64,000 bases of DNA, from positions 19,559-83,558 of the forward strand of contig JAHILF010000092.1 in assembly GCA_018897105.1 (NCBI GenBank), in the 5' to 3' direction. Under the pieces are notes generated by a model. That model ran no database searches and was not told the DNA's origin. It worked only from the letters and a program-made list of their open reading frames with translations. Numbering within the stretch: the first letter of the stretch is position 1; every line of letters begins with the position of its first letter. The position numbers and the translations under genes are program-made. This document shows, one piece after another, positions 5,915-46,656 of this stretch. The stretch comes from Pseudomonadota bacterium. Its GTDB lineage: Bacteria > Desulfobacterota > Desulfobulbia > Desulfobulbales > SURF-16.

Positions 5915-7843
5915 ATGAGAATTTTACTGATTGCACCATCTTACGCCCGGGACCGAAACGCCGGTTATTTTCCAATGGGTATTGCCTATATTTCCTCCTA
6001 CATTCGTCAGTATGGTCATGAGGTGATTCCGTTTAATATGGGCATTCTTGATTATGATCAGCGTCTGGCCACTCTGGAGGAGATTCTTGATCATAATGAA
6101 ATAGAGCTGGTAGGCATTTCTGTCATGACCCTTGGTTTCCTTGAGTGCGAATCCTTAATAAAGATGATTCGGCGGTTGCGTCCCGATTTACCCATTGTGG
6201 TGGGTGGCGACATAACCTCAGGTGAACCGGAAGCGGTATTAGCTGAACTGAGACCGGATTATGGGGTAGTTGGTGAAGGAGAGATTATTTTTACCAATCT
6301 TCTTAAGGCCCTTGAATCCGGATACGATGTATCCGGGGTCAAGGGGATATGGCATTGGTGTGAGGGTGAGCTTCATTATACCGGAGACGGTGAAACGGTC
6401 TCCGACCTTGATACACTGCCTCGCCCGGATATTGATTTGTTTGGTATAAAGGAATATCTCAATATTCAAAGGGAATTTCTCTGGCGCTCTCTGCGCTCCA
6501 CCTATGACCGGAAAAATGTATTGATTGTCTTTGCGAGTCGATCATGTCCTTTCCATTGCACTTTCTGTTATCATGTCGGCCCTTATAAACAGCGTTCCAT
6601 TACTTCCGTAGTCGATGAAATAGAGGATATGGCCCATCGCTATCAGATTTATTCTTTTGATATATACGATGATCTTTTTGCTGTAAAGAAAGAGCGAATT
6701 CATGAGTTTTGCAATCAATTGCAACAGCGCCGGTTAGATATTGATTGGACCATCCAGATGAGAGTGAATCCTTTTGTGGATCAGGAAACTTTGACCCTGA
6801 TGAAGGAAACAGGATGCCGTGAACTTTTCTTTGGCGTGGAGAGTGGTTCCGATACGATTCTGAAAAGCATGCGCAAGGGCATTACAACTAAGCAAATTGC
6901 CAAAGCAATGGAGATGACCAGAAAGGCAAAAATAGGTTGCCTGGGAGCTTTTTTGTTGGGGGATCCAGCAGAAACCGAAGAAACACTTGAGGAATCTTTG
7001 AAGTTTCAGCAGGATAATGAAATGTATTTTTCCCAATGGAGCCCAATTGTTCCCTATCCTGGATCGCAGATCTGGATGCATCTCTGCCGCGAGAAGCTCC
7101 ACACGCCTGAAGCAAAAATAAACTTCATCCGGAAAATATGTAACCCGAATCGCTATTTCTGGAATGATCAGGTTAATTTAACCAGAATGTCGGATGAAAA
7201 ATACTGGGAAATGTATGTTTTTCTTCGGGAGTTGAATGATATAAATTATCGTAAACAAAAGGCTATTTTATTGGGTGGTCAGCAGGCATCACCATATTAT
7301 TCTAAGATGCAATTAGCCTGCCCAAGTTGCATGCAAGAGGTCGAGCATACCATCGTCTATCCAGCTGAGTGTGCTCATGATGGTAACTTGAATTTGGATG
7401 CTGTCATCGGAGTACAGGGTGTCAATATCGTTTGTATGAATTGCCGCCGCGAAATGCATGTGGCAGCCAAGGATATCCCCCATGTGCGAAAGGTCTACAA
7501 TGCTTTTCAACACAGTGTCGATGCATTAAAAATGGAGAACAGAGAGGTGGTTGTCATTCCCGCCTTGGATAGATATAAGCATGTTTTTTTTGAGGATATT
7601 GACATGGATGGCTTGAATGTTGCGGCGGTTTTAGACTCCAGGACTAAAGCAATCGGCAGAGAATTTATGGGCACGGAGGTCTCGGAACTCAATCAGGAGA
7701 ATGTGAAAAGATATGCTGATTGTGCGTTCCTCGTCCTCCCCTGGGTTGAGTACATGAAAGCTGTCAGTTTGTGCGAGCAGCAAGGTGTCAGCTCATATCT
7801 TTCTTGGAATAGGCTTTTTGCGCCTGATTACGGTTTGTTATGA
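5915..7843 (+). CDS. B12-binding-domain radical SAM enzyme (class B rSAM) with a ~200-aa C-terminal extension
   Basis: N-terminal B12-binding pattern (ILLIAPSY..LVGISVMT..IVVGGDITSGEPE) and FASRSCPFHCTFC (CxxxCxxC). The C-terminal Cys4 pattern is CPSC..x38..CMNC. Paralogue of 10050-11975. Confidence 0.9.
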   Translation: MRILLIAPSYARDRNAGYFPMGIAYISSYIRQYGHEVIPFNMGILDYDQRLATLEEILDHNEIELVGISVMTLGFLECESLIKMIRRLRPDLPIVVGGDITSGEPEAVLAELRPDYGVVGEGEIIFTNLLKALESGYDVSGVKGIWHWCEGELHYTGDGETVSDLDTLPRPDIDLFGIKEYLNIQREFLWRSLRSTYDRKNVLIVFASRSCPFHCTFCYHVGPYKQRSITSVVDEIEDMAHRYQIYSFDIYDDLFAVKKERIHEFCNQLQQRRLDIDWTIQMRVNPFVDQETLTLMKETGCRELFFGVESGSDTILKSMRKGITTKQIAKAMEMTRKAKIGCLGAFLLGDPAETEETLEESLKFQQDNEMYFSQWSPIVPYPGSQIWMHLCREKLHTPEAKINFIRKICNPNRYFWNDQVNLTRMSDEKYWEMYVFLRELNDINYRKQKAILLGGQQASPYYSKMQLACPSCMQEVEHTIVYPAECAHDGNLNLDAVIGVQGVNIVCMNCRREMHVAAKDIPHVRKVYNAFQHSVDALKMENREVVVIPALDRYKHVFFEDIDMDGLNVAAVLDSRTKAIGREFMGTEVSELNQENVKRYADCAFLVLPWVEYMKAVSLCEQQGVSSYLSWNRLFAPDYGLL

Positions 7844-7865
7844 TTTCCCTGGTTGTGTTTTGATA

Positions 7866-8888
7866 ATGAGAGCCGCCGAGAACTATTTTAAAGAATTAAC
7901 CTTGGCTCGTGGCATCGCTATTCTTTTGGCTATTTTGGGGAACTCCATTACTACAACGCCCGTTGATATGAAAGTGACGGGTGGCCTATTATTATTGCAT
8001 AATTATATTTACAGTTTTCATATGCATCTTTTCTTTGTTGTGTCCGGCTGCTGTTTAGGTTTGGCTAAACAGGAGAGGTATATCAGGGTGGTGGAGAAAA
8101 AAATAAGCAGACTTTTGATTCCCTATTTACTTTTTAGCTTATTATTTTTCTGCCGATACATGTTCTTTGATCCCTATCATTTAATGCCGGAGATCTGGAG
8201 TTATATTATCCATATCCTTCTCAAAGGTGGAGAATACTGGTTTATTTTTGTGCTTTTTCTGTTTTTCATTATTTATCCGGTCGCAAGTTTTCCTGCCGGA
8301 AAAATTGGGCCCGTGTGCAATATCTTTTTGTTGCTTTTGTTCGCCTATTTTTGTCGAGTCTTTTTTTCTGAGTCATTAATCAACCATGATGCTTTTTATT
8401 TTTTAGTTTATCTGGCTTATTTCCTATCTGGTTATTTTGTTGCACCGTTAGTCTCTTCCTGGTTACGCAACAAGCAGCGCATGCCGCCAATAGTTTTTTG
8501 GGGGGCTTTGCTTCTTTTTCTTTTGATGGGACGTCTGGATCTCCGTTCCCATGATGTTGCCGTCATTATCATAATATTCACCCCTTTTTTCGGGATTGTT
8601 CTCGCTATGCGAATGGCTCAATTTCTTGCCCATACCGGATTCGCAAAGGTTTTTTTATGGTTGGGGAAGTGGTCATTGCAGCTTTATCTTGTTGAAGCTT
8701 TAATCGCGGTGTTTGTCATGTATTTTTATTATGATGTGATGTCGGTAAGGCATTCTTTACTGTTCATGTTGTTATTTTTCCTGTCTAAAATGGTTATTTG
8801 TTATTTGCTGCTGGAATTTGGCATCGGACGATTATCAATTTTGCATAAATTTTGTGGAGTAATTCGACGTAAAGAGGCGGCATTGTAA
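7866..8888 (+). CDS. membrane acyltransferase, acyltransferase_3 family
   Basis: The LARGIAILLAILGN start motif and about 10 TM helices are typical of the O-acyltransferase 3 family. I prefer ATG 7866 (after the upstream stop at 7843) to the track start at 7785. Confidence 0.75.
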   Translation: MRAAENYFKELTLARGIAILLAILGNSITTTPVDMKVTGGLLLLHNYIYSFHMHLFFVVSGCCLGLAKQERYIRVVEKKISRLLIPYLLFSLLFFCRYMFFDPYHLMPEIWSYIIHILLKGGEYWFIFVLFLFFIIYPVASFPAGKIGPVCNIFLLLLFAYFCRVFFSESLINHDAFYFLVYLAYFLSGYFVAPLVSSWLRNKQRMPPIVFWGALLLFLLMGRLDLRSHDVAVIIIIFTPFFGIVLAMRMAQFLAHTGFAKVFLWLGKWSLQLYLVEALIAVFVMYFYYDVMSVRHSLLFMLLFFLSKMVICYLLLEFGIGRLSILHKFCGVIRRKEAAL

Positions 8889-10013
8889 ATGGGGTTGCTT
8901 CGGTTTTTATTGGCACTGGATATTCTTATCTCCCATTTCCCGGCCACAAGTATTGGGCGCTACCTCTTCCTTGATGATGCGGTTGCTGTGAAAACATTTT
9001 TTATCTTATCCGGGTTTTACATAAGTCTGATTCTGTCGGAGAAGTATAATACTCCAGGGGGATATCGGGTTTATCTGACCAACCGATTTTTGCGATTGCT
9101 TCCCGCCTTCTGGGTTGTTCTGCTGTTGACCATAATTGGCTCCGGGGTGAGCGGGATTTTTTTTGACAATTGGGGGAGGCTGTTACCCTACCTGGATTAC
9201 TGGGATAAAATGACCTGGGAGGCAAGCGGTTATCTGATTATCTCAAATATCTTCCTGGTGGGGCAGGATTTGATTCGGTTTATGTTTCTCGATCTTGCCA
9301 ATGGTACGCTGGGTTTGACCCCTGATTACATGGGGCATACCCCAATTATGGCAACTTTCATGTTTGTCCCGCAGGCCTGGTCCCTAGGCATTGAATTGGT
9401 CTTTTATGCCGTGGCTCCACTTTTTGTCTCACGGGATCAAAGGGTGCTGGTTATCCTGCTTGTCGCGATCCTTGGGGGACGATATTGGTTTACTTCCATG
9501 TGGCAACTCCCCCAGGAACCCTGGAAGTATGGTTTTTTCCCTTTTGAACTTTCAATGTTCATTCTGGGAATCCTGGCATACCAGGTTTATCTGAAAATCA
9601 GAGATCGTCATATTCCAAAGTCATTTTTCTGGGGACTTTATTTATTTGTCGTCTTTGTTACCCTGATTTGGGATTTCCTGCCTGGGATAACAATAAAAAC
9701 AAATAGTTATTACGGTCTTTTTTCCCTTGCTCTTCCATTCTTATTTGCAGGGAGACAGGATGGATGGCTTCAGAGGAAATTAGGGGATCTTTCTTATCCA
9801 ATCTACGTGTCTCACATCCTGGTGCGTGATGTATTGTTGGTCCTCTGTCAGTCGAGCCTGCTAGTCCCCTATGTGGGAATCCTTTCAGCCATAGCAACGA
9901 TGATTTTTTCTATTGCCCTGCATCATTTTATTGTTATGCCCATTGAAACGTATCGTCAGCAGCGGGCCTTATCAATTCGGAATAATTTGAGATATGCCGC
10001 ACTTGGTAAATAG
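8889..10013 (+). CDS. membrane acyltransferase, acyltransferase_3 family
   Basis: LRFLLALDILISH..VKTFFILSGFYISL is a conserved acyltransferase_3 N-terminus, and the protein is multi-TM. The ATG abuts the upstream TAA. Confidence 0.8.
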   Translation: MGLLRFLLALDILISHFPATSIGRYLFLDDAVAVKTFFILSGFYISLILSEKYNTPGGYRVYLTNRFLRLLPAFWVVLLLTIIGSGVSGIFFDNWGRLLPYLDYWDKMTWEASGYLIISNIFLVGQDLIRFMFLDLANGTLGLTPDYMGHTPIMATFMFVPQAWSLGIELVFYAVAPLFVSRDQRVLVILLVAILGGRYWFTSMWQLPQEPWKYGFFPFELSMFILGILAYQVYLKIRDRHIPKSFFWGLYLFVVFVTLIWDFLPGITIKTNSYYGLFSLALPFLFAGRQDGWLQRKLGDLSYPIYVSHILVRDVLLVLCQSSLLVPYVGILSAIATMIFSIALHHFIVMPIETYRQQRALSIRNNLRYAALGK

Positions 10014-10049
10014 TTATTCAAGAATAGTTTGACCATAAAGAGAAATAAA

Positions 10050-11975
10050 ATGAAAATACTCCTCATCGCTCCCTCGTATGCCAGGGATAGAAATGCAATG
10101 TATTTTCCCACAGGGGTCGCGCAGATTTCATCCTATATCCGGCAGTCTGGCTATCAAGTTGCTGCTTTGAATATGGGGAATCTGGCATATGATGAGAGGA
10201 TGGGTGAACTTGAAAAGCAGATTCTGATGGGAGATGTAGATCTTGTCGGTATAAGTTCCATGACCCTCGGTTTTTTGCAGACAGAAGAAATAGTAAGAAA
10301 AATTCGATCTCTTGCTCCGGAGATTCCTATTTGCCTTGGTGGTGATATCACCTCTGGAGAACCGGAATTAGTCCTCCGGGAGCTGCAGGTTGATTATGGG
10401 GTGGTCGGCGAGGGGGAACTGATTTTTCTTAATCTTCTTCATGCACTTGTCCAGCATGCTGATGTGGCCAGCGTTAAGGGGTTGTGGGTCAGGCTCCAGG
10501 ACAGATTTGTCTTCACAGGTGAAGGACCCCTGATCGATAATCTCGATGAACTACCTCTCCCTGACTATGAACTGTTTGGGGTCGAAAATTTTTTTACAAT
10601 TCAGCCAAAAGCCAATTGGCAGTATTTACGTTCTCATGACAATAGTCAGGTCATAATGCCGGTTTTTGCAAGCCGATCATGCCCGTTTAACTGTAGTTTC
10701 TGCTATCATACCGGGCCATATAGGCAGCGCTCCATCCCGTCACTTATCGAAGAATTGTTCTATTTCAAGGATAGCTTCGGCATTACTTCTTTCAATATTT
10801 TTGATGACCTCTTTGCGACCGATCGAAAACGGATCGAAGAATTTTGTCAGGCCCTGAAGAAGGAAGATCTGGACATTTCCTGGTCCACCCAAATGCGGGT
10901 TCATCCCATTGACCTTGAACAATTACAGATGATGCAATCAGCCGGATGCAAGGATATAACCTTTGGTATTGAAAGCGGTTCCGACCGGATCCTCGCCAGT
11001 ATGAATAAAAAAATCAACACCAGGCAAATAGCAACTGCTGTTGAGTTCGCTCGGCAGGCGAGGATAGGAGTCGTTGGCAACTTTTTATATGGCGATCCGG
11101 CGGAAACAGAAGAGACTCTTGAAGAATCGCTGCAGTTCCAGCAGGAAAACAAGATGTTTTTCGTCCAATGGGCCGCAATTATACCCTATCCTGGTTCTGC
11201 CATCTGGAAGTATGTCTGCAAAAACAAAATCAGCAGTGAGGCTGAGAAAATGGCTCTTATCCGTAAACTCAGCAATCCGGTTCATTACTTATGGAATGAT
11301 CTGGTAAACATGACCAAAATGACGGATAAGGTTTTCTGGGATAAGTTCGTTGATTTGCGGGAAGTTAATGATATTAATTTCAGAAAGGGCCAAGCTATTA
11401 TGCATCAATCGACACCCGATAAAGAGAGAAATCACTCTCTGTGCGATCTTGAGTGTCCATCCTGCGGTTTGCGCAGAGAACTGACTATCCCGTATCCTGT
11501 TGAGTGCTTTGACGGCGGGGAACCCGATCTTAATACTGCAATAGGAGTCAAGGGAATTAATCTGGTATGTCCCTCGTGTCGACAGGAAATGCATATCCCT
11601 GCCAATAAAATCGCCCATATCGCAGAAAAATATCATTTTTTTCAGGCTCAGGTGCAGCAGTGTGTCGCAACTGGAGAGGACGTTGTATTGATCCCTGCTT
11701 TAGATAGATTCCTTTATATTTTTAACGAAGATATTGACCTTTCTCATCTTAATGTAAAACAGGTGTGCGACACGCGGGAAAAACGGTTTGGGTGTTATTT
11801 TATGGGCAAGAAGGTTGAAGAATTGACTCTTGAAAACCTTAAGAAAAATTGTCATGCAACATTTTTTCTTCTCCCCTGGGTGGAGTATGAAAAACCATTG
11901 TCACTTTTAAATGATATCGGAGCCCGGAAGGTGATTTGCTGGAATCGCCTATTTGCCGATAAGGTTTCGGAATAA
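10050..11975 (+). CDS. B12-binding-domain radical SAM enzyme (class B rSAM) with a C-terminal extension
   Basis: MKILLIAPSYARDRNAMYFP..LVGISSMT..CLGGDITSGEPE and FASRSCPFNCSFC. The C-terminal pattern is CPSC..CPSC. It aligns by eye along its full length with 5915-7843. The track start at 10029 is TTG, so ATG 10050 is preferred. Confidence 0.9.
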   Translation: MKILLIAPSYARDRNAMYFPTGVAQISSYIRQSGYQVAALNMGNLAYDERMGELEKQILMGDVDLVGISSMTLGFLQTEEIVRKIRSLAPEIPICLGGDITSGEPELVLRELQVDYGVVGEGELIFLNLLHALVQHADVASVKGLWVRLQDRFVFTGEGPLIDNLDELPLPDYELFGVENFFTIQPKANWQYLRSHDNSQVIMPVFASRSCPFNCSFCYHTGPYRQRSIPSLIEELFYFKDSFGITSFNIFDDLFATDRKRIEEFCQALKKEDLDISWSTQMRVHPIDLEQLQMMQSAGCKDITFGIESGSDRILASMNKKINTRQIATAVEFARQARIGVVGNFLYGDPAETEETLEESLQFQQENKMFFVQWAAIIPYPGSAIWKYVCKNKISSEAEKMALIRKLSNPVHYLWNDLVNMTKMTDKVFWDKFVDLREVNDINFRKGQAIMHQSTPDKERNHSLCDLECPSCGLRRELTIPYPVECFDGGEPDLNTAIGVKGINLVCPSCRQEMHIPANKIAHIAEKYHFFQAQVQQCVATGEDVVLIPALDRFLYIFNEDIDLSHLNVKQVCDTREKRFGCYFMGKKVEELTLENLKKNCHATFFLLPWVEYEKPLSLLNDIGARKVICWNRLFADKVSE

Positions 11976-11976
11976 T

Positions 11977-12825
11977 ATGCACCATGAAAATTGTATTGTC
12001 TGCGATAGTAACCATTTGCAGGTAATTCATAAAAAAATTGAATCATTACCACCCAATTTTTCGCTTACGAACAACCATTCCGGACATTTTGTCATCGTGA
12101 GGTGTCAATCATGCGGGATGACTTTTGTTCAGAACCCTTTGACTTCAGAAGAAGAAAAAGAGGTTGACCTTATAGAAGATTTTCATGAGGAATTTCCAGA
12201 GCCCGAAGGCCGGCACAGGTACATGGCCCGGATGTTGATCGATGAATATGAAAAGAATTCCAGGCTGCGGGTGCTTGAGCTTGGCTGCGGCTATGGGGCT
12301 ATTCTCCGTTTTGTCAGGGATAAAGGATTCCGTTATGAGGCGCTGGAATTGAGCCACTGGAGGGTGAAGATGCTGGAGGAGGCCGGTTATCCTGTTGCAA
12401 GGATGACGTTGCAGGAATATAGCAGGAAATATCAGGACAGAAAGTTTGATGTCATTATTATTGATAACGTCCTTGAACATATTGTCGGGCCGAAGAAAAT
12501 AATGGAGGAAGCAATGGAGCTTCTTGCCCATGAAGGGAAAATCATAATTTCAGTTCCAGGACTGTATGACGTCCGGCGCTGGCTTGTCCCGGGCTGGGCC
12601 CGGAAATATCTCTGGCAGCCGAAAAGGCATGTGAATTTTTTCTCCAGTCGAACCTTAGCCTCCATGTTATCTCCCATGGGCCTGCAGGTTGGCTCATTTC
12701 CGCTGCTGTTTCCTCGCAGCGCCGACGCACGGCAGTTCATACTGTTTTTGGAAATTTTCTTTGATCGATTTCTGCCTGAACCTCTGTTTGGCATTTACAG
12801 AATATTTGCAAAGGCAAGAAGGTGA
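11977..12825 (+). CDS. class I SAM-dependent methyltransferase with an N-terminal Cys4 zinc-ribbon-like motif
   Basis: CIVCDS..x35..CQSCG, then motif I VLELGCGYGAIL and IIIDNVLEHI. ATG 11977 lies just after the upstream stop. Confidence 0.8.
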   Translation: MHHENCIVCDSNHLQVIHKKIESLPPNFSLTNNHSGHFVIVRCQSCGMTFVQNPLTSEEEKEVDLIEDFHEEFPEPEGRHRYMARMLIDEYEKNSRLRVLELGCGYGAILRFVRDKGFRYEALELSHWRVKMLEEAGYPVARMTLQEYSRKYQDRKFDVIIIDNVLEHIVGPKKIMEEAMELLAHEGKIIISVPGLYDVRRWLVPGWARKYLWQPKRHVNFFSSRTLASMLSPMGLQVGSFPLLFPRSADARQFILFLEIFFDRFLPEPLFGIYRIFAKARR

Positions 12826-14311: not shown

Positions 14312-15664
14312 ATGAAAACTTTATTAATTATTCCGCCCAGCAATTCAGATAGCCCACTGCCTACCCTCGGTGTAGCCTACCTGGCTTCATCCCTGCAGCG
14401 GGCCGGACATGAGGCACGTATTCTTGACCTTTGGACTGAACCCTTATCTGATCAGCAACTTCTCGCAAATATTGGAGAATATCAGCCGGATCTTGTCGGG
14501 ATTACTTTTTTCACCCGAAGATATAGTGCAACAAAAAAACTAGCTGATGATATCAAGGACTGGTTCCCTGATAAGAAAATCGTAGTTGGAGGTTATCACC
14601 CCTCAGCCCTGCCCCGGGAGACCTTGGAAGAAATTCAATCAATTGATTTTGTTGCCATTGGAGAGGGGGAGGAAACCATCGTTGAATTGCTGGAGTCTCT
14701 TCCTGATAAAGAATGGGACACCGTGAATGGTATTGGCTATCGGGGTGAGGGGGGGGCAGTAGTTCTCACGCCTCCACGAAAATTCATAAAGGATCTCGAT
14801 CAACTGGCTTATCCCGATCTGTTCCAGGTTGACCCGAGAAAATACCGTATTCACCCGCCCTATGGCTGGTTTGGCTTGCCCCTGACGATGATTACCACCA
14901 GGGGCTGCCCAGGGAAATGCACTTTCTGTTCCAAATCAGTCTTCAAAAGAACACTGCGTTCTCTGTCCCCGCGTAAAGTTGTTGATGAAATTCTTTATTG
15001 GAAAGAGCGATTGCCTGTTAAGGAAATTCGATTTTACGATGATGATTTCACCATCTCCCAGAAGCGTACTTTTGAGATCTGCGATCTGCTCATTGAGGAG
15101 AAGGTGAATCTCCCCTGGACCTGCACAACGCGCGTTGATTTTTTGTCACGCGACCTTATGGTCAGGATGAAAGAGGCAGGGCTGTATTTTATTACCCTGG
15201 GAGTGGAATCAGGTTCCCCTAAGGTATTAAAGGGCTTGCAGAAAGGGTATACCGTGGGGCATATAAGGGATGCATTTTCATGGGCGCATCAGCTGGATCT
15301 CGTCACGTTTGCCTTTTTTATGGTTGGCTGCCCCGAGGAGACAGATGAGGATGTTGCAATGACCATGGCGATTCAAAAAGAAATCAAACCGGATTTCCTG
15401 AATTGGGGAGTCTTGCGGGTAGTGCCCGGCAGTCAGCTCTTTGAAGAGTTCAAAAGGGACCATGCTTATGATTTCTCCTGTGATCAAAACCCCATTTACC
15501 GGCAGGATCTTGATGAAAAATATCTGTGCAAATTATGTAAAAAGGGGATGCTGACTCATTACACCTCCCCATGGGGAGCCCGGGCAGTTCTGAGGTATTT
15601 CTATAACACGAAAAATTTCGGGGTCATTGCCAACGGATTGCAGTGGATCAAGGAGCTTATCTGA
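14312..15664 (+). CDS. B12-binding-domain radical SAM enzyme (class B rSAM)
   Basis: DLVGITFFT..IVVGGYHPSALP and TTRGCPGKCTFC. It contains a G8 homopolymer at 14749-14756. Confidence 0.9.
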   Translation: MKTLLIIPPSNSDSPLPTLGVAYLASSLQRAGHEARILDLWTEPLSDQQLLANIGEYQPDLVGITFFTRRYSATKKLADDIKDWFPDKKIVVGGYHPSALPRETLEEIQSIDFVAIGEGEETIVELLESLPDKEWDTVNGIGYRGEGGAVVLTPPRKFIKDLDQLAYPDLFQVDPRKYRIHPPYGWFGLPLTMITTRGCPGKCTFCSKSVFKRTLRSLSPRKVVDEILYWKERLPVKEIRFYDDDFTISQKRTFEICDLLIEEKVNLPWTCTTRVDFLSRDLMVRMKEAGLYFITLGVESGSPKVLKGLQKGYTVGHIRDAFSWAHQLDLVTFAFFMVGCPEETDEDVAMTMAIQKEIKPDFLNWGVLRVVPGSQLFEEFKRDHAYDFSCDQNPIYRQDLDEKYLCKLCKKGMLTHYTSPWGARAVLRYFYNTKNFGVIANGLQWIKELI

Positions 15665-15665
15665 A

Positions 15666-33202: not shown

Positions 33203-33210
33203 GGGAGAAA

Positions 33211-33834: not shown

Positions 33835-33837
33835 AAA

Positions 33838-34418: not shown

Positions 34419-34436
34419 AAGGCGTCAAGCTGGAGC

Positions 34437-36311: not shown

Positions 36312-36368
36312 GGTCGGAACTTCGGCCCACTGCGTATTTTCTCTGGTTTTGCCGCAGGGGCTTTTGAT

Positions 36369-37433: not shown

Positions 37434-37607
37434 AAAACGAGGACTGCTGATAAATTCATCATTTCCTGGCGCTGTTCTCCTGCAGTCTAGGCGGACAATT
37501 CGTCATTTCATTCCCATACTGTCATAATATCGGGCAGTAGCTGTTGTTTTCCCCTTGTTGTCACGGCAAATTTTTCCCTTTACGGGCGCGGCCATGGTGT
37601 TGTTTCA

Positions 37608-37640
37608 AACAAAAATATCAGTGCTTGATATTTTTGTTTA
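37608..37640. repeat. perfect 14-bp inverted repeat with a 5-nt spacer (candidate regulator/enhancer-binding site, or a weak hairpin)
   Basis: AAACAAAAATATCA gtgct TGATATTTTTGTTT. The arms are exact reverse complements. It lies about 100 bp upstream of the sigma54-like motif. Confidence 0.6.
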
Positions 37641-37725
37641 ACTTTCTGTAAATAAAGAGTTTTTTAAGGGCAATAGGCCTTTTGGCATCGAGTTTGTTTC
37701 TCTCCTTTTTTATTTCCCCGGCGCA

Positions 37726-37741
37726 TGGTATGCAACTTGCT
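37726..37741 (+). promoter_or_regulatory. candidate sigma54 (-24/-12) promoter for the 37960 operon
   Basis: TGGTATgcaacTTGCT matches TGGYAY-N5-TTGCW with the correct GG-to-GC spacing. A weaker copy, TGGCATcgagtTTGTT, is at 37683-37698. Confidence 0.5.
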
Positions 37742-37959
37742 AAAAAGTTAAACGTAAAGTTTACTTTAGCTTTTTTTTCTGCTGTCGATAAGGCTATTCA
37801 GAACAGATTGTTTTCTTTGGATTAGTAACGTTATCACAGGTACTGCCGCTGGACAATCTCCCCGGTATTTTCTCTACTTCACCTGTGACTGCATGGATTG
37901 GTCATTTTTCTGAATTTTGACAGACCCCTTTATGGCGTCCTGTTATTATTGGTGCCTGC

Positions 37960-40164: not shown

Positions 40165-40184
40165 CAATATAAAGGAGCAAGCGA

Positions 40185-40781
40185 GTGTGGGAACAAAGTA
40201 AAGCCGCGAAACGACGCTTTGGCATCGGAGCTTTTCATAACCGTTACTTTGTCGGGCATGGAATAGATGTGGGGGGTAAGCCGGATCCCCTTGGCCAGTA
40301 TGCCGGAATTTTTGCCAGAATGGCATCCTGCCGAACCTGGGATATTGAGGATGGTGATGCCCAGCTTATGAAAGGGGTGGTTGATAATCAGTATGATTTT
40401 CTGCACGCCAGCCATTGTCTGGAGCACATGGTTGATGTGGACGAGGCGATGGCCAATTGGATTCGTATTGTCAAGCCCGGTGGATTTCTGATTATTACAG
40501 TACCGGAAGAAGATCTTTACGAGATCGGCAACTGGCCCAGCAAGTTCAATCCTGATCACAAGTGGACATTTGCGATCATGAAAGAAAAAAGCTGGTCGGA
40601 AAAATCGATAAACGTGGTTGATTTACTGCGGAGATATGTCGGTTTGATAGAAGTGGAAAAAGTTGAACTCATACGTGATTTTTTCCGGGATTCATGGGTG
40701 CGGGAGCAGATTGATCAGACCAGAACCCCGGTAGCGGAATGCTGCATTGAAATTATCTTACAGAAAAATGGAGGAAAATGA
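40185..40781 (+). CDS. SAM-dependent methyltransferase (Methyltransf_11/23-like)
   Basis: FLHASHCLEHMVDVDEAMANWIRIVKPGGFLIITVP. GTG start, 8 nt after AAAGGAG. Confidence 0.6.
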   Translation: MWEQSKAAKRRFGIGAFHNRYFVGHGIDVGGKPDPLGQYAGIFARMASCRTWDIEDGDAQLMKGVVDNQYDFLHASHCLEHMVDVDEAMANWIRIVKPGGFLIITVPEEDLYEIGNWPSKFNPDHKWTFAIMKEKSWSEKSINVVDLLRRYVGLIEVEKVELIRDFFRDSWVREQIDQTRTPVAECCIEIILQKNGGK

Positions 40782-41824
40782 TGACGATCATCAGCGGCTC
40801 AGTCGCCAAACAACTCATTAAGGGTGCATTGTTAAAAGAAAATGTTGATCAACAGGTGGCTGAATATGTAGCCGAAGGACTTACCTCAACCTCCTTGAGA
40901 GGTGTTGATTCCCATGGGATCAGGCTCATTCATCATTATCTTGCCGGGGTCAAATCAGGTCGCATCAACCCCCGTCCGGTATATAAAATTGAAAAGAAAA
41001 TGGCCACGGCGGCGGTACTGGATGCGGATGACACCTTCGGACATGCCGCCTGTATGGAGGCTACCAGAGTGGCCGTGGAAATGGCCGGTGAGTTCGGCAG
41101 CGGCCATGTGGCAGTGAGAAATTCAACCCATTTCGGTGCGGCCGCCTACTATTCGATTGAAATTGCCAGGCAGGATATGGTGGGTATGAGTTTTACCCAC
41201 TCGGATTCTCTCATCATTCCCACCAACGGCAAGCGAAGTTTTTTAGGCAACAATCCAATCTGTTTTGCCGCTCCTGTCAAAAATGAAGAACCCTTTTGCC
41301 TGGATATGGCCACCAGCATTACCACATTCAATGAGATCCGCCGCCTGCGGGAAACCGGGGGAACCGCCCCTGAAGGAGTAGGGGCGGACAGTGAAGGCAG
41401 ACCAAGCACCGACCCGAACCAGATCACCATGCTTACCCCGGTGGGGGGTTATAAGGGATATGGACTCAGTCTGATGGTGGAGATTCTGTGCTCGATGATG
41501 ACCGGGATGAATTATGGGCCGCATATCTCCAAAATGTTCGAAAAGCTGGAGAATAAACGACATCTTGGCCAGTTTGTCAGCGCTCTCAATATCTCGGCCT
41601 TTCAGGAAGTTGATGTTTTTAAAGAGCGCATGTCACTGCTGGTAAACGAGCTGAGAAACGAACCGACCCTGGAGCCCGGCAAGCAGGTCATGGTGGCCGA
41701 TGATCCGCAGAAACGAAATTTTGCCCGCCGCAGCAAAGAGGGAATTCCGGTCACTGAGGCGGAACTGGCTCAGTTCAGGAAATTGAACGAAACATATAAA
41801 CTGAACGTGGAGTTGGGCTCATGA
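40778..41824 (+). CDS. Ldh_2-family (malate/L-lactate/2-keto-acid) NAD(P)H-dependent dehydrogenase
   Basis: SLRGVDSHGIRLIHHYL..HFGAAAYY..GGYKGYGLSLMVEIL, typical of Ldh_2. ATGA overlap with the upstream stop. Confidence 0.75.
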   Translation: MMTIISGSVAKQLIKGALLKENVDQQVAEYVAEGLTSTSLRGVDSHGIRLIHHYLAGVKSGRINPRPVYKIEKKMATAAVLDADDTFGHAACMEATRVAVEMAGEFGSGHVAVRNSTHFGAAAYYSIEIARQDMVGMSFTHSDSLIIPTNGKRSFLGNNPICFAAPVKNEEPFCLDMATSITTFNEIRRLRETGGTAPEGVGADSEGRPSTDPNQITMLTPVGGYKGYGLSLMVEILCSMMTGMNYGPHISKMFEKLENKRHLGQFVSALNISAFQEVDVFKERMSLLVNELRNEPTLEPGKQVMVADDPQKRNFARRSKEGIPVTEAELAQFRKLNETYKLNVELGS

Positions 41825-42555
41825 TCGGCAAAGAGAAAATTATTGCCATGATTCCGGCCCGGATCGGCAGCACCCGGCTGCCCATGAAAAATCTCGCCTT
41901 GATCGACGGTGCGCCGATGATTTCCTACGCCATCATGGCAGCAAAAAAATCTGGGGTGTTTGACCGGATCGTCATTAATGGTGATGATCCGCTGTTCAAC
42001 AGGATCGCTGAACGTTACGGGGTGGAGTTTTATCTGCGTCCCAAAGAGCTTGGCAGTTCAACAACGAAATCAGATTTTGTGGTGCAAGATTTCATGCTGA
42101 AGCACCCTGCGGATATTCTCTGCTGGGTAAACCCGACTTCTCCTTTGCAGACCGGCAGCGAAATCAGGGCGGTGGTGGACCATTTTATCCAGGAAAAGCT
42201 GGATACCTTGATCACGGTGAACAGGGAACAGGTCCATGCAAGTTTTCAGGGCAGGCCGATAAATTACAACCCGGATGAGGTTTTTGCCCAGACCCAGGAC
42301 CTGATGCCGGTGGATGTCTTTGTTTATTCGGTGATGGCCTGGAGAAACAAGGCCTTTCTCGCGGAATTCAATAAAAAAGGGCAGGCTTTTTTTGTCGGAA
42401 AGTTTGGGGTGTACCCGGTCTCCAAGATGTCCGGCATCATCATCAAGCGCAAAGAGGACCTGAAATTGGTGGAAAGTATTGTAAAGTCATTGAAAGACAG
42501 TGGTTCGGACACTCTTTGCTATGATCCCCTGGCTGAGGAGCGGGCACATGGCTGA
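41821..42555 (+). CDS. acylneuraminate (CMP-nonulosonate/CMP-sugar) cytidylyltransferase-family protein
   Basis: IAMIPARIGSTRLPMKNLALIDGAPMISYAIMAAKKSGVFDRIVINGDD, the CTP_transf_3 N-terminal signature. ATGA overlap with the upstream stop. Confidence 0.8.
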   Translation: MIGKEKIIAMIPARIGSTRLPMKNLALIDGAPMISYAIMAAKKSGVFDRIVINGDDPLFNRIAERYGVEFYLRPKELGSSTTKSDFVVQDFMLKHPADILCWVNPTSPLQTGSEIRAVVDHFIQEKLDTLITVNREQVHASFQGRPINYNPDEVFAQTQDLMPVDVFVYSVMAWRNKAFLAEFNKKGQAFFVGKFGVYPVSKMSGIIIKRKEDLKLVESIVKSLKDSGSDTLCYDPLAEERAHG

Positions 42556-43756
42556 CCAGGGCCGTGCCATTGATCTGCTGATTGTCGGCGCCGGCATGTA
42601 TGTCTGCGGCAAGGGCACTGACGGCTACGGCACCATTCTGCCGGCAGCTTTGGAGGCATGCCGGGCCGGTGTGGTGGGTCGTATTCATATAGCCGCCCAG
42701 TCTGGAAAAAGCGCCCAAGCAGCCCTGGCAAAGGCGGAAGAATTACGCAAGCTAATGGGGGTTGATGCCGAGGTTGCCGTCTCTCCCCAGGGAACAGAGC
42801 ATGACAGTCGTGCCTATATCAAAGCGGCCGAGGCCCTTTCCCCGGACAGTGCGGCAATTATATCCGTGCCGGATCACCTGCATTTTGACATTACCAGGCA
42901 GCTCATTGAACGAAAGATTCATGTGCAGGTGGTGAAGCCTCTTGTCCCGGGGATTAAAGAGACAAGAGAACTTATTGCCCTGAAAAAAAAGTGGAATGTC
43001 CTCGGCCTGGTGGAATTTCATAAGCGGTTTGATGAGTCGAATCTGAAACTCCGCGAATTGATCGAACGTGATGAGCTTGGTGAGTTGTTGAATTTCAGAA
43101 TTCAATATAGCCAGCGCAAGATTATTCCCACCCGCGCCTTCCGCAACTGGGTTGAACAGACCGATATTCTCCAGTATCTGGGGGTTCATTACGTTGACCT
43201 CATCCATTTCCTCACAGGGGCAAAGCCGATGCGGGTCATGTCCTACGGCTTGAAAAAGCATCTGGTGCAAGAGGGAATTAATACCTTTGACACGATCCAG
43301 ACCCTCATAGAGTGGAGGCGGGGTAAAGACGGGGATTTCCTCTCCTCTCATCTGACCGGATGGGTTGATGCGGACACATCCAGTGCCATGTCAGACCAGC
43401 GTCTTGAAGTGCAGGGCACCAGGGGACGTTGCCTGGTGGACCAGAAAAACCGTGGGGTCAGCCTGTCTCTGGACGGTAAAGGGGTCGAGGATATCAATCC
43501 CTATTTTACCCAGTTGTACGCGGCAATTGACGGCAAAAACAAGCGAGCCGCCGGCTATGGACCTGAGAGTATTCTCAGTTTCCTGCGTGATGTGCAAAAT
43601 ATCAAAAACGGGGTCAGCCAGCCCGCCGGTCTCGGCGGCTTGCGGGCGACCTTTGAGTCTTCCCTGTATGTCGCCGCAGTGCTGGAGGCGTCTCGGATAA
43701 GTCTGGATAGTAAAAACTGTTGGGTTGATGCGAGCCCCCTATGGGCCGAGGTGTGA
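42548..43756 (+). CDS. Gfo/Idh/MocA-family oxidoreductase
   Basis: LLIVGAGMY Rossmann start, VQVVKPL (EKP-like motif), and HKRFD. ATG 42548 overlaps the upstream stop by 8 nt. Confidence 0.7.
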   Translation: MADQGRAIDLLIVGAGMYVCGKGTDGYGTILPAALEACRAGVVGRIHIAAQSGKSAQAALAKAEELRKLMGVDAEVAVSPQGTEHDSRAYIKAAEALSPDSAAIISVPDHLHFDITRQLIERKIHVQVVKPLVPGIKETRELIALKKKWNVLGLVEFHKRFDESNLKLRELIERDELGELLNFRIQYSQRKIIPTRAFRNWVEQTDILQYLGVHYVDLIHFLTGAKPMRVMSYGLKKHLVQEGINTFDTIQTLIEWRRGKDGDFLSSHLTGWVDADTSSAMSDQRLEVQGTRGRCLVDQKNRGVSLSLDGKGVEDINPYFTQLYAAIDGKNKRAAGYGPESILSFLRDVQNIKNGVSQPAGLGGLRATFESSLYVAAVLEASRISLDSKNCWVDASPLWAEV

Positions 43757-43758
43757 AT

Positions 43759-45105
43759 ATGAAAGTATCGATAATTGTCAGAACCAAAAACGAGGAGAGA
43801 TGGATTTCTTCCTGCCTGAAGGCCGTGTACTCCCAGGATTTCCAGGACTTTGAAGTCATCATTGTGGACAATGAGAGCAGTGATTCCACCTTGGCCAAGG
43901 TGGGACAGTTCCCGGTGAAAAAAATTCTCGCCTGCACGGATTACCTGCCGGGCAAGGCCCTCAATATCGGCATTGCGGCGGCTGAAGGGGAGTTCATTGT
44001 CTGCCTGTCGGGCCATTGTATTCCGACAAACTCATCCTGGCTCGGCAATCTCTATCGTAATATGGAAGATCCGGAAGTTGCCGGGGTTTATGGCCGGCAG
44101 GAGCCCCTGTCCTTTACCCCACCAGCGGATAAGCGGGATCTGATGATTGTCTTCGGCCCGGAACGCCGGGTGCAGAAAAAAGACAGTTTTTTTCATAACG
44201 CCAACAGCATGATCAGAAAAGAAATTCTGGACCGATATCCCTTTGACGATAAAATTACCAATATAGAAGACCGGGTATGGGCCCAGGTCGTCATAAATCG
44301 CGGCTATACCATTGTTTATGAGCCGGAAGCCAGTGTTTACCATCATCACGGCATTCATCAGGACGGCAACCAGCAGCGCTGCCAGAATGTGGTCAAAATA
44401 CTGGAGAGCCTTAATGGCAATGCCTACCAGCAGGACCATATGCACCGGTTGCAGGATCTGAATATTGTCTCTTTTATTCCAGTGAAGGGGTTCTTAAAGT
44501 CCCTGGGTGGAAAGCCATTGCTGGAATATGCCATCCGTGCCTCCCGGGAATCAAAATACATCAAATCGACTATTGTCGCGGCGGATGAGGAGCAGGTCCT
44601 TCGAAGCGCGGAAGATATGGGAGCGGAAAAGACCTTGCTCAGGGACCAGTCGCTGTCTCAGGAATATGTCGGTCTGGAAAAGGTCTATAAGTTTATTCTG
44701 CAGCAGCTTGAGGCGGAACACAATTTTCCTGATATCATTGTTCTGCTGGAAACAACCTATCCGTTTCGGGATGCCAAATTGATAGATGATCTGGTGGACA
44801 GGCTGGTCTTTCAGGGGCTTGATACTATTTTACCCGCAAAAATCGAGAATAATGCCATCTGGGTTGATGGCGAAGACGGCATGAAGCGGGTTGATGGCGG
44901 CTTTATTCCCCGTAATTTAAAAAGTCCGGTTTATTTGAGCTATAAGGGCCTCTGTTGCGTGACCAGGCCTGAATTTATCCGTAACGAAGAAATTCTCGGG
45001 GAGAATATCGGTGTGATGAAAATTGATAACCCCTATTATTGCATGGAATTCCGGGATGACAAGGATTGGCAGATGCCTGATATGAGTATTTTTCACGTCA
45101 ATTAA
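43759..45105 (+). CDS. fusion of a GT2 glycosyltransferase (N-terminal) and a cytidylyltransferase (C-terminal)
   Basis: N-terminus: VSIIVRTKNEERWISSCL..VIIVDNESSDST..CLSGHC. C-terminus: IVSFIPVKGFLKSLGGKPLLEYAI..IIVLLETTYPFRD (CTP_transf_3-like). Confidence 0.7.
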   Translation: MKVSIIVRTKNEERWISSCLKAVYSQDFQDFEVIIVDNESSDSTLAKVGQFPVKKILACTDYLPGKALNIGIAAAEGEFIVCLSGHCIPTNSSWLGNLYRNMEDPEVAGVYGRQEPLSFTPPADKRDLMIVFGPERRVQKKDSFFHNANSMIRKEILDRYPFDDKITNIEDRVWAQVVINRGYTIVYEPEASVYHHHGIHQDGNQQRCQNVVKILESLNGNAYQQDHMHRLQDLNIVSFIPVKGFLKSLGGKPLLEYAIRASRESKYIKSTIVAADEEQVLRSAEDMGAEKTLLRDQSLSQEYVGLEKVYKFILQQLEAEHNFPDIIVLLETTYPFRDAKLIDDLVDRLVFQGLDTILPAKIENNAIWVDGEDGMKRVDGGFIPRNLKSPVYLSYKGLCCVTRPEFIRNEEILGENIGVMKIDNPYYCMEFRDDKDWQMPDMSIFHVN

Positions 45106-45168
45106 GGGTGTTAATTCAGGTATTACATCTGAAAGAACCGGTACTCTTGTGCCGCTGGAGCAGAGCCG

Positions 45169-46656
45169 ATGAAAAAAATGAGAGATGTAAGGGTGTTGCT
45201 TGTGTCTCCCAATGTTTTGGGACTGAAGGACGGCATTAATCGCATTCAACCCGGACTGGGGATCATGTATATCGCCGCTGTCCTTGAGCAGCGAGGGTGT
45301 GAGGTGGCGATATATGATTCCGCCCTCGAAGGTTATGAGCGGCAGGTTGAAGTTCCCGGCAGGCCGAATATTGTCGAGATTGGCGATACTGATGAGGCCA
45401 TTGTTCGGCGTATTATGACTTTCAAGCCCGATATGGTCGGCATTTCGGTGCTTTTTTATAATCAGTCCCCCCAGGCGTATCATCTGGCTAAATTAGTCAA
45501 AGGGTTTGACGACACTATTCCGGTTGTCGTGGGCGGCAACCAGGTTGCCGAGGAATATTCCGGGCTCATGCAAAATGAGAATTTCGATTTTGCCATGATC
45601 ACCGAAAGCGATCTTAACTTTGCGGATTTTGTCGAACGCTACTTTTCCGGTGGCGATTTTCATGCTGTTCCCGGACTGGTTTATCGAAAGGGAGACGCCC
45701 TGGCGGTAAATCCCGCCGGTGGTATTGTCAAAAATTTAAACGAGCTGCCTTTTCCGGCAAGACATCTTGTCAACATGGAGAAGTATTTTCAAATCAGCAT
45801 GTTTCATAATCCCTATTCCCGTCATCCCCGAGTCGGCAATGTCATGACCTCACGCGGATGTCCGGAAAAATGCACTTTCTGCACAACGCCTCTTCGTTGG
45901 GGGAAAAACATCCGCTGGCGGTCAGCGGAAAATGTCTATCAGGAGATTCTGCAGTTAAAAGAACAATACGGCGTCGGCGAAATCCAATTTGAGGATGATT
46001 CCCTTACCTTAAACATTAAAAATCTGTTTACCCTCTGTGATCTCATCGGCCCTTTGGGGTTAAGCTGGAATACCGTCAACGGCATTCGGGCTGATTATCA
46101 TGGCGGGCAAAAGGGGAAGCAGGAGCGGATGTTCCGAAAAATGGCTGAAGCCGGTTGTTATCAGGTTTGTCTCGGCGTGGAGACCGGAAACCAGGACCTT
46201 CTTGACAACCTGCTAAATAAACACCTGGATCTCCATGCGGTTGAGCCCTGTGTAACTGCGGCAAAAAAAGCAGGTCTTGCTGTCCATCTTTTTCTGATGG
46301 TGGGCTTTCCCGGTGAAACCATTGAGCAGATGCATAATACGATCAGATTTGCCGAAGGCCTCGATGTGGACAGCTGTTCCATCTCAATTTACTCGCCCTT
46401 GCCGGGAACGCGGCTTTATGACTATGCTGTCAGCAATAATTATCTTGTCGATGGATTCAGCAAAGACAACATTTTGTTTGCCAAGGCAAACATCAAGGTT
46501 CCCGGCATGACTTCCGAAGAATTTGAGGAACAGGTGGTAAAATGGACCAACAGGCTCAATAACCGGCTGAAAGAAAAATCACCGGCGCAATACCGGGAAA
46601 AATATGCGAAATTTCTGAACGAAGATAACACGTTCCTTTTCAGGAAGCATTCTTGA
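45169..46656 (+). CDS. B12-binding-domain radical SAM enzyme (class B rSAM)
   Basis: DMVGISVLF..VVVGGNQVAEE and MTSRGCPEKCTFC. Confidence 0.9.
   Translation: MKKMRDVRVLLVSPNVLGLKDGINRIQPGLGIMYIAAVLEQRGCEVAIYDSALEGYERQVEVPGRPNIVEIGDTDEAIVRRIMTFKPDMVGISVLFYNQSPQAYHLAKLVKGFDDTIPVVVGGNQVAEEYSGLMQNENFDFAMITESDLNFADFVERYFSGGDFHAVPGLVYRKGDALAVNPAGGIVKNLNELPFPARHLVNMEKYFQISMFHNPYSRHPRVGNVMTSRGCPEKCTFCTTPLRWGKNIRWRSAENVYQEILQLKEQYGVGEIQFEDDSLTLNIKNLFTLCDLIGPLGLSWNTVNGIRADYHGGQKGKQERMFRKMAEAGCYQVCLGVETGNQDLLDNLLNKHLDLHAVEPCVTAAKKAGLAVHLFLMVGFPGETIEQMHNTIRFAEGLDVDSCSISIYSPLPGTRLYDYAVSNNYLVDGFSKDNILFAKANIKVPGMTSEEFEEQVVKWTNRLNNRLKEKSPAQYREKYAKFLNEDNTFLFRKHS

Follow-up and report, generated by a model that had tools for sequence, protein, structure and literature searches.

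A 64,000-nt window from the metagenome-assembled genome (MAG) of an uncultured bacterium, read together with its flanks (about 84 kb of neighbourhood), contains an island in which 14 intact genes for radical S-adenosylmethionine (SAM) enzymes (rSAMs; 15 with one lying upstream) stand together with genes for sugar pathways and transferases. The latter comprise nucleoside diphosphate (NDP)-heptose genes, an aminosugar aminotransferase and a short-chain dehydrogenase/reductase (SDR), cytidine monophosphate (CMP)-transferases, class I methyltransferases, acyl- and carbamoyltransferases and several glycosyltransferases (GTs). Two modules of the island, a cassette around the rSAM gene at 45169 and a module of heptose genes, a Glyco_trans_1_2 (GT1_2) glycosyltransferase and the rSAM gene at 5915, repeatedly have pse and flagellin genes as neighbours in other genomes. 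The reading we lean towards, at slightly better than even, is a composite surface-glycan island with two delivery routes, flagellin being one of the acceptors.

Fourteen radical SAM genes in one island

A Pfam scan of every long plus-strand open reading frame (ORF) returned 14 intact coding sequences between 5915 and 46656, each with a PF04055 (Radical_SAM) match (E 1e-15 to 5e-28) and with exactly one canonical CxxxCxxC motif, located inside that match. Nine of them add an N-terminal PF02310 B12-binding domain (E 6e-14 to 5e-25); these nine pass the gathering cut-off on both PF02310 and PF04055 and carry the motif about 200 residues in. A preliminary description of the stretch, made from the sequence alone, had counted the same 14 motif-bearing genes and the same nine B12-domain proteins, both of which were recovered here, and its slightly different start coordinates agree with the gene-caller starts in public records. 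Its expectation of SPASM-type Pfam hits (PF13186 or PF13394) in at least four of the five shorter proteins was narrowly missed: PF13186 was found in three (18296/18308-19459, 21487/21529-22512 and 23965-25044). The remaining two, 27959-29233 and 36369-37433, match only PF04055 and Fer4_12 in Pfam and have three and five C-terminal cysteines, respectively, so that calling the five SPASM/twitch-like or Cys-rich was fair. The genes are as follows:

5915-7843, plus strand: B12-rSAM no. 1, 642 aa (PF02310 E 7e-19, PF04055 E 9e-19; CPFHCTFC at residue 211)
10029-11975, plus strand: B12-rSAM no. 2 (annotated start 10050), paralogue of no. 1 with 52% identity
12822-14246, plus strand: B12-rSAM no. 3 (top NCBIfam model HpnJ, 221 bits, under cut-off)
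14312-15664, plus strand: B12-rSAM no. 4 (top NCBIfam model BchE, 206 bits, under cut-off)
16829-18247, plus strand: B12-rSAM no. 5, 42% identical to no. 3
18296-19459, plus strand: rSAM/SPASM no. 1 (alternative start 18308; PF04055, PF13186)
21487-22512, plus strand: rSAM/SPASM no. 2 (alternative start 21529; PF13186; sequence matches among solved structures include the sugar-modifying rSAMs BtrN and BlsE)
22509-23957, plus strand: B12-rSAM no. 6 (PF02310, PF04055)
23965-25044, plus strand: rSAM/SPASM no. 3 (PF13186)
27959-29233, plus strand: MoaA/NirJ-like rSAM with a twitch-like three-Cys C-terminal tail (no Pfam SPASM match)
29254-30696, plus strand: B12-rSAM no. 7 (PF02310, PF04055)
30734-32200, plus strand: B12-rSAM no. 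8, HpnJ-like (HpnJ model 392 bits, full length)
36369-37433, plus strand: rSAM with a Cys-rich (SPASM/twitch-like) tail, downstream of a carbamoyltransferase gene
45169-46656, plus strand: B12-rSAM no. 9 (PF02310, PF04055), placed by the contexts of its orthologues in a conserved NeuB-linked cassette

Together the rSAM genes take up 48% of the 5915-46656 interval. The densest 21 kb hold nine of them, whereas 37 metagenome loci of at least 12 kb each, recovered because they contain a related B12-rSAM, have a median of two and a maximum of five rSAM-like genes. Pairwise identity among the nine B12-domain proteins is 22-32%, with the exception of two pairs at 52% and 42%, indicating that the set was gathered from distinct, anciently diverged lineages and does not stem from recent amplification; recent tandem duplication was accordingly rejected as the origin of the rSAM number. 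About 7 kb before the window begins, a further rSAM/SPASM gene, the 15th, is found in the company of NDP-heptose genes.

The same gene order was found in a second MAG (GCA_016219175.1, 'Deltaproteobacteria bacterium NC_groundwater_1637') at 81-97% amino acid identity over its readable part (window 0-42.5 kb), which argues that the island is not an assembly artefact. Between the two MAGs, dN/dS (nonsynonymous to synonymous divergence) of the island genes is 0.05-0.34; all 13 rSAMs readable in the second MAG have orthologues, with dN/dS of 0.07-0.18. The rSAM genes are intact and maintained under purifying selection. GC content is uneven along the island (42-44% at window 2000-12000 against 51-55% at 28000-40000), and dS to the second MAG runs at 0.08-0.17 over 3554-10013, against 0.25-0.58 in the rest; this compositional mosaic and the uneven dS suggest that the left segment was recently exchanged between lineages. 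The closest named relatives of individual window proteins belong to Desulfobacula/Desulfobacteraceae MAGs and an ATP sulfurylase gene lies just past the flagellar genes, from which the groundwater host can reasonably be taken as a deltaproteobacterium related to Desulfobacteraceae, with an anaerobic, sulfate-reducer-like metabolism. The window itself was located on NCBI contig JAKLQG010000108.1 (90,485 bp; assembly GCA_022013535.1) by way of its flagellin and the DUF2304 protein, and starts near record position 19,560.

An AlphaFold2 (AF2) model of the 5915 protein (pLDDT 86.9) was matched by Foldseek to TsrM (E 5e-22), OxsB, AprD4, MgmA, CysS and TokK; as modelled, the protein has the class B rSAM fold. 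The family it forms with 10029 is rare, with about 16 full-length homologues. Both proteins share a C-terminal extension of about 240 residues (residues ~400-642) with four invariant cysteines, arranged as CPxC ... CxxC, and with conserved PALDRF and LPWVEY motifs. Although AF2 models this part confidently, the extension gave no fold match of its own; it may represent a zinc ribbon or provide a site for an additional cluster.

The flagellar end and two recurrent modules

To the right of a 526-bp gap that follows the last of the left-hand genes, the island continues as listed here:

37726-37741, plus strand: sigma-54-type promoter-like site TGGTATGCAACTTGCT, in the 526-bp gap, 234 bp before the operon starting at 37960
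37960-45105, plus strand: GT9-like 734-aa protein, methyltransferase-like fragment, Ldh_2, CTP_transf_3 (PseF-like), GFO/IDH/MocA and a GT2::CTP_transf_3 fusion
46792-47526, plus strand: CmcI-type methyltransferase, after 45169
47549-49168, plus strand: 539-aa protein with an uncharacterised N-terminal domain and C-terminal tetratricopeptide repeats (TPRs), with an orthologue in Desulfobacula-type cassettes
49158-50354, plus strand: L-2-hydroxyglutarate oxidase (545 bits, cut-off 299), end of the right-hand operon
50404-51600, minus strand: 398-aa protein of no detectable family, convergent on the L-2-hydroxyglutarate oxidase gene
within 50404-56698, minus strand: HisF-like and HisH-like proteins and a WbuX N-acetyl-sugar amidotransferase (acetamidino formation)
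54209-56698, minus strand: 829-aa protein of FlmG architecture (TPRs in residues 1-530, GT9-like C-terminal 300 aa)
56833-59712, plus strand: Maf-type flagellin glycosyltransferase with C-terminal TPRs (PF01973 E 7e-32, PF20157 E 3e-11)
59710-59737, plus strand: sigma-28-type site TAAAGTTG-N11-ATCCGATA, overlapping the Maf stop codon and preceding the flagellin gene
59895-62309, plus strand: flagellin, 804 aa, directly downstream of the Maf gene and followed by fliD, fliS, fliT and flaG

The block was therefore correctly described beforehand as running into Maf, FlmG-like and flagellin genes, being physically continuous through flagellin-fliD-fliS-fliT-flaG, and the adjacency of Maf and flagellin genes is the arrangement that marks a Maf system. 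FlmG joins an N-terminal TPR flagellin-binding domain to a C-terminal GT-B domain (PMC7591256), and the 54209-56698 protein reproduces this architecture in its domain layout. PseF-like CMP-transferases are present in the right-hand module. The flagellin has a central domain of 545 residues with 26% Ser+Thr. It is unusually long, has no Cys and carries AGSxLG-type hexapeptide-like repeats in the central domain (Hexapep E 3e-8), which on sequence looks like a left-handed beta-helix.

Outside this window, orthologues of 45169 (55-81% identity) lie directly downstream of NeuB/PseI in three NCBI MAGs, one of them from Desulfobacula, and on one Logan contig, with genes for a CmcI-type methyltransferase, Ldh_2, CTP_transf_3, GFO/IDH/MocA and GT2::CTP_transf_3 as neighbours; the cassette from Ldh_2 to GT2::CTP_transf_3 is conserved in three of the loci compared (L003, L009 and L011). 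The three MAG loci add an orthologue of the 539-aa TPR protein, PseB, PseF, PseG-H and WbuX/HisH/HisF, and in two of the three PseC and MotB flank the cassette. The window carries the cassette at 40.8-49.2 kb, without pse genes. A look-up of cluster members for cultured hosts of the cassettes returned only Desulfobacteraceae/Desulfobacula MAGs.

For the 5915 family, a Glyco_trans_1_2 gene lies close upstream in seven of eight loci, four of which show an array of GmhA/HldE, a split transketolase, an rSAM, a giant GT1_2 protein and a further rSAM. PseF and PseB follow this array in three of the four; in one locus (L018) NeuB and two flagellin genes also follow, and in another (L021) fliD is nearby. 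The GT1_2 family and the SPASM rSAM upstream likewise recur beside pse, flagellin or fliD genes, and in two further loci (L033 and L054) other B12-rSAMs stand beside FlmG-like and flagellin genes. A trio of a NeuB-like gene, a B12-rSAM and a MoaA-like rSAM was found in six metagenome loci, where the homologues of 27959 are 33-36% identical to it, and one locus (L022) unites NeuB, PseF, a 5915-type rSAM, a 29254-type rSAM, SPASM rSAMs and a carbamoyltransferase. The proposed co-occurrence of the rSAM set with maf and flagellin genes in relatives hence stood for two rSAM types, which are found beside pse and flagellin genes, but not for the 13-rSAM block, which is lineage-specific.

The hint of a polysialyltransferase in the N-terminal domain of the 539-aa protein is very weak, and neither the L-2-hydroxyglutarate oxidase nor the 398-aa protein occurs in the related cassettes. 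Both promoter-like sites are consensus matches only. When the window was searched with strict patterns for sigma-28 and sigma-54, one site matched, of the sigma-54 type; as the sole match against 0.25 expected by chance it is weak on its own, and it is kept in the second MAG amid an otherwise diverged spacer. A generic sigma-70 and terminator scan of the window did no better than shuffled sequences. A strong terminator-like hairpin lies at 62387-62423, after the flagellin gene.

The left block and a possible second delivery route

Between the rSAM genes of the left block, which extends to 37.4 kb, and just before them lie the following genes:

from 1211, plus strand: soluble Glyco_trans_1_2 glycosyltransferase, 780 aa (PF13524), 30% identical to the giant GT1_2 proteins of flagellin-adjacent loci
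3554-5209, plus strand: GT-C-fold membrane glycosyltransferase, 551 aa (AF2 and Foldseek)
7785-10013, plus strand: two Acyl_transf_3 (AT3) membrane acyltransferases, 7-10 predicted transmembrane segments
15627-16841, plus strand: SGNH/GDSL-like protein with an N-terminal membrane anchor (domain and transmembrane prediction)
19496-20512, plus strand: LPG_synthase_TM (UPF0104) membrane protein, eight transmembrane segments
25076-27962, plus strand: DegT aminotransferase, DUF218 protein and HpnA-like SDR (26922-27962), from domain matches
32201-33202, plus strand: membrane-anchored GT2 with C-terminal transmembrane segments, directly after 30734
33838-34221, plus strand: SxtJ-like membrane protein (E 0.004)
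34269-34418, plus strand: DUF5989 protein, a 49-aa ORF absent from the ORF list, matched over its full length (E 1.4e-25)
34437-36311, plus strand: NodU/CmcH-type O-carbamoyltransferase (domain match)

All the interleaved genes named in the preliminary description (methyltransferases, two Acyl_transf_3 proteins, an SGNH hydrolase, DegT, an SDR, a GT2 and a carbamoyltransferase) were found. The SxtJ-like protein, the DUF5989 protein and the carbamoyltransferase form a set that reproduces the SxtJ/SxtK/SxtI-type trio of saxitoxin clusters, and DUF218 proteins number two in the left block.

The AF2 model of the 3554 protein (pLDDT 85.7, pTM 0.88) matched STT3 best in Foldseek (TM-score 0.53-0.55), along with AglB, ArnT, PimE, PglB and AftB; the top of the list holds GT-C enzymes only, and on this model the protein is a GT-C-fold glycosyltransferase. 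It has no Pfam, NCBIfam or PDB match in sequence searches and profile searches against PDB sequences, and a word-indexed homologue search with its 551 residues returned only the protein itself. An exhaustive search among 1.84 billion proteins gave 30 representatives of this very rare family, in which D41 (placed by our reading of the topology in an external loop), R203 and N204 are invariant and PMT_2 matches occur in two of 21 members. A PDB sequence search with the 780-aa Glyco_trans_1_2 protein gave no match either. Just before the window lies a gene for a PpgS-like polyprenyl-phosphate sugar synthase of the GT2 family (112 bits, below the cut-off of 370), followed by DUF2304. GT-C enzymes use lipid-linked donors and are active on the external side of the membrane, while flagellin receives its glycans in the cytoplasm and then leaves through the flagellar channel by type III export. 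As flagellin is never at or outside the membrane where the GT-C enzyme would work, a route from the PpgS-like GT2 through DUF2304 to the GT-C protein could not serve it.

In the 10 kb upstream of the window (locus L013, 1-10011) we also found genes for an HldE-like kinase/nucleotidyltransferase, a GSU2086-family protein (above cut-off), a RmlD-like reductase, the 15th rSAM/SPASM, an APH-like kinase, a split transketolase, an HddC-GmhB-like fusion and an HddA-like kinase, which by their family matches amount to a predicted NDP-heptose-type pathway.

These genes bear directly on a reading in which the block at 5.9-37.4 kb and the upstream heptose genes would build and decorate a lipid-linked polysaccharide, lipopolysaccharide (LPS), S-layer or glycolipid glycan of the envelope, to be exported and altered at the membrane, flagellin being served only from about 38 kb onwards. 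It accounts for the PpgS-like GT2 (112 bits), DUF2304 and the GT-C fold of 3554, for the two AT3 proteins, the membrane-anchored SGNH protein, LPG_synthase_TM, the two DUF218 proteins and the GT2 with C-terminal transmembrane segments, and for the division of the island by the 526-bp gap with its own promoter-like site and by GC content (42-47% in the left half, 50-55% in the right). Relatives that bear the cassette lack the 13-rSAM block, and loci with several rSAMs and a GT2 but no flagellar or nonulosonate genes do exist (L066, L093). However, scanning the window turned up no Wzx/Wzy/Wzz, no ABC exporter, no WaaL and no initiating phosphoglycosyltransferase, and pse, flagellin or fliD genes are recurrent neighbours of the 5915 and GT1_2 families and of the SPASM rSAM upstream. 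Homologues of AT3 or GT-C occur in none of the 37 comparison loci, indicating that the rSAMs do not require these membrane genes as partners, and AT3 enzymes are known to act also on nonulosonates and small cytoplasmic molecules (Lag-1, AcyA). We consider a purely envelope-directed left block a serious possibility, though a doubtful one.

An assignment of the entire block to the flagellin glycan was supported only in part: a flagellar link was found for the 45169 and 5915 modules, while for the left block it is made doubtful by the PpgS-like GT2, DUF2304, the GT-C protein and the membrane proteins. In the composite island that we favour, the rSAMs would work in the cytoplasm, where their substrates would be sugar intermediates linked to a nucleotide or a lipid, and some of the B12-domain rSAMs would C-methylate these. 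Non-methylating reactions would probably occur as well, namely ring contraction (HpnJ-like), dehydration or deoxygenation (AprD4-like) and oxidation or epimerisation by SPASM enzymes (BtrN/BlsE-like). Further groups would come from class I methyltransferases, the AT3 proteins and the carbamoyltransferase, which has the SxtJ-like and DUF5989 proteins as partners. The products may then leave by two routes. In the first, Maf, the FlmG-like protein and other TPR-tagged transferases would O-glycosylate the Ser/Thr-rich flagellin in the cytoplasm, and this appears best supported for the 37.9-50 kb module with 45169 and for the heptose/GT1_2/rSAM-5915 module. In the second, the PpgS-like GT2, DUF2304 and the GT-C protein would form a polyprenyl-phosphate-linked periplasmic path to a non-flagellar envelope acceptor.

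Several points weigh against this composite reading. Each of its steps is read from the sequence of a MAG. Relatives of the 45169 cassette have a single rSAM in 21 kb and lack the 13-rSAM block, which makes the block lineage-specific and leaves adjacency alone to link it to flagellin; flagellar genes occur in only four of the 37 comparison loci. NeuB, PseB and PseG/H are absent from the window and its 10-kb flanks (about 84 kb), so that the donor sugar for Maf is not identified at the locus and its nonulosonate nature, as originally proposed, is unproven there. None of the 14 rSAMs reaches a curated NCBIfam cut-off and no reaction can therefore be assigned; likewise, cobalamin use by the nine B12-domain proteins cannot be read from sequence, and an Rfam scan found no riboswitch of any kind in the window, cobalamin and SAM riboswitches included. 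Finally, with its membrane and periplasmic components, part of the island would seem to serve something other than flagellin.

Radical chemistry, precedents and related clusters

Among B12-domain rSAMs, HpnJ, BchE and OxsB are non-methylases; Fom3, MoeK5 and HpnJ co-cluster, SD1168 has no known function, HpnJ is a proposed ring-contracting, non-methylating enzyme, and GenK, GenD1 and MoeK5 modify sugars in natural-product pathways (PMC9204698). The prediction of a B12-dependent, C-alkylated product accordingly held for its first part only as far as the nine B12-binding domains go, and methylation is a domain inference, as the relatives include the non-methylases HpnJ, BchE, OxsB and AprD4.

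The 30734 protein aligns end to end with the HpnJ model and scores 392 bits, below the equivalog cut-off of 577.6. It forms an HpnI/J/A-like trio with the HpnA-like SDR at 26922-27962 (204 bits), three genes upstream, and the GT2 directly after; by analogy with the conversion of glucosamine to a cyclitol ether by HpnI/HpnJ/HpnA, ring contraction of an aminosugar is a plausible non-methylating reaction of the trio. The same resemblance, together with scores of 100-160 bits of several B12-rSAMs on TIGR04072 ('lipid biosynthesis B12/rSAM') and the many membrane proteins, would fit an island for lipid modification, with rSAMs acting on a lipid head group or chain in hopanoid side-chain or ladderane-type chemistry. 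Every one of these scores falls below its curated cut-off, sugar-nucleotide genes dominate, and squalene-hopene cyclase, HpnH, HpnG and fatty-acid or isoprenoid genes are absent from the ~84 kb around the island, which makes such an island very improbable. Membership of 30734 and 26922 in the hopanoid families was rejected on the scores and the absent core genes, the mechanistic analogy being kept. Apart from falling below the cut-off of 578 and having no hopanoid core genes near, the window differs from HpnI/HpnJ/HpnA in that HpnJ-like proteins are paired with GT2 in other multi-rSAM glycan loci (L002, L082 and L093), an archaeal MAG included.

The 45169 protein reaches 263 bits with the Sden_1168 family (Fom3/PhpK/Sden_1168), against a cut-off of 575, and its top match among solved structures is the diol dehydratase AprD4. 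A phosphonate reading, in line with which one homologue is named 'phosphonoacetaldehyde methylase', was rejected: no phosphoenolpyruvate (PEP) mutase domain or motif is present in the window, and the orthologues stand in nonulosonate contexts.

The rSAMs that tailor sugars in natural-product pathways (GenK, GenD1, Fms7, MoeK5, Fom3, AprD4, BtrN, BlsE) share two-domain architecture and fold with those of the island, and AprD4, BtrN and BlsE are among the top solved-structure sequence matches of the latter. Companion DegT aminotransferase, SDR and carbamoyltransferase genes also occur in both. The island differs in its identity to them of about 15-25%, with no cut-off reached, in its surface-glycan/glycoprotein context and in having far more rSAMs per locus. 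Its DegT, SDR and TobZ/NodU-type carbamoyltransferase, its GenK/AprD4/BtrN-like rSAMs, its methyltransferases and its glycosyltransferases resemble aminoglycoside tailoring closely enough that a cluster for a sugar-derived, aminoglycoside- or aminocyclitol-like small molecule, a chance neighbour of the flagellar locus, must be weighed. Yet no 2-deoxy-scyllo-inosose synthase or other cyclitol core enzyme, resistance gene or exporter was detected in the window, the relatives of its rSAMs are found in nonulosonate and flagellin contexts, and the genes are co-linear with glycoprotein machinery; we hold such a cluster to be highly unlikely.

A last alternative would have the radical enzymes act on protein, in the manner of ribosomally synthesised and post-translationally modified peptides (RiPPs), by C-methylation, epimerisation or crosslinking of the beta-helix-like domain of flagellin or of another protein. 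PoyC-type B12-rSAMs and SPASM enzymes modify peptides, and the 545-residue hexapeptide-repeat-like central domain of the flagellin is unusual. PoyB is likewise a peptide-modifying B12-rSAM (PMC9204698). The flagellin offers no Cys for thioether links, however, sugar enzymes dominate the island, no PqqD/RiPP recognition element (RRE) domain or leader-peptide gene was detected in the window, and the top family matches of the SPASM proteins, all below cut-off, are of cofactor or sugar type and not peptide maturases. The RiPP reading was rejected for its lack of RRE and leader features, and protein-directed modification is the least probable of the explanations considered, verging on negligible.

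Compared with the Maf/FlmG nonulosonate islands of Campylobacter, Aeromonas, Clostridium, Geobacillus and Caulobacter, the window is alike in having Maf and a protein of FlmG architecture by flagellin-fliD-fliS, a PseF-like CMP-transferase, a WbuX/HisH/HisF module and methyltransferases. In contrast to them, it has no nonulosonate synthase or PseB/G/H in the ~84 kb, adds the 14 rSAM genes and a periplasmic GT-C route, and spans about 60 kb, whereas flagellin glycosylation islands typically measure a few kb to about 20 kb. With periplasmic glycosylation of the PpgS/Rv3632/Rv3779 or ArnC/ArnT type it shares a PpgS-like GT2 followed by DUF2304 and, three genes later, a GT-C protein; it differs in that the GT-C family is very rare, has no Pfam or NCBIfam coverage and is embedded among rSAM genes.

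A literature search in a single collection, in which absence is not strong evidence, found no paper that links the glycosylation of flagellin or the biosynthesis of nonulosonates with radical SAM enzymes, in keeping so far with the earlier statement that no characterised pathway of either kind uses one. The enzyme classes, the Maf/FlmG machinery and rSAM sugar tailoring in antibiotic pathways are already known; the novelty is that they are combined, repeatedly so in environmental anaerobes, and that the rSAM genes are so extremely dense here. Judged from its genes, the island points to sugar chemistry new to bacterial surface glycans; genes alone are no proof that all of it reaches the flagellum. 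To our knowledge, characterised flagellin and surface-glycan pathways use polar, two-electron sugar chemistry. If the rSAMs act on the glycan, C-H functionalisation at unactivated carbons (C-methylation, ring contraction, deoxygenation) would join glycoprotein biosynthesis, glycan structure would be tied to cobalamin and anoxia, and the resulting sugars would be missed by standard glycomics databases. In its boldest form, rSAM chemistry, in part cobalamin-dependent, would be a recurrent, undescribed glycosylation layer of anaerobes, with the NeuB/B12-rSAM/CmcI cassette making a C-alkylated or rearranged nonulosonate and the 14-15 rSAMs a multiply C-methylated, carbamoylated and possibly carbocyclised heptose/aminosugar/nonulosonate glycan on the filament; we hold this only tentatively and regard it as rather unlikely in full. 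Two compact units recur in several lineages, the NeuB/B12-rSAM/CmcI cassette of six to seven genes and the module of heptose genes, GT1_2 and the 642-aa rSAM, and both could be reconstituted heterologously although the host is uncultured.

Dense loci without nonulosonate or flagellar genes were also encountered in metagenomes and an archaeal MAG (L093, L066, L082 and L002). In them HpnJ-like and other B12-rSAMs are combined with GT2, up to five rSAMs falling within 12.6 kb; such clusters, for a glycan or glycolipid, may form a class of their own that has yet to be characterised. On marine metagenome contigs (L006-L008) we found a large family 41-45% identical to 45169. No phosphonate genes are present there, and the names BchE and 'phosphonoacetaldehyde methylase' therefore look wrong. 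The family is abundant in marine samples, and its neighbours are DegT, SDR, second B12-rSAM and GT1 genes next to a TonB receptor gene.

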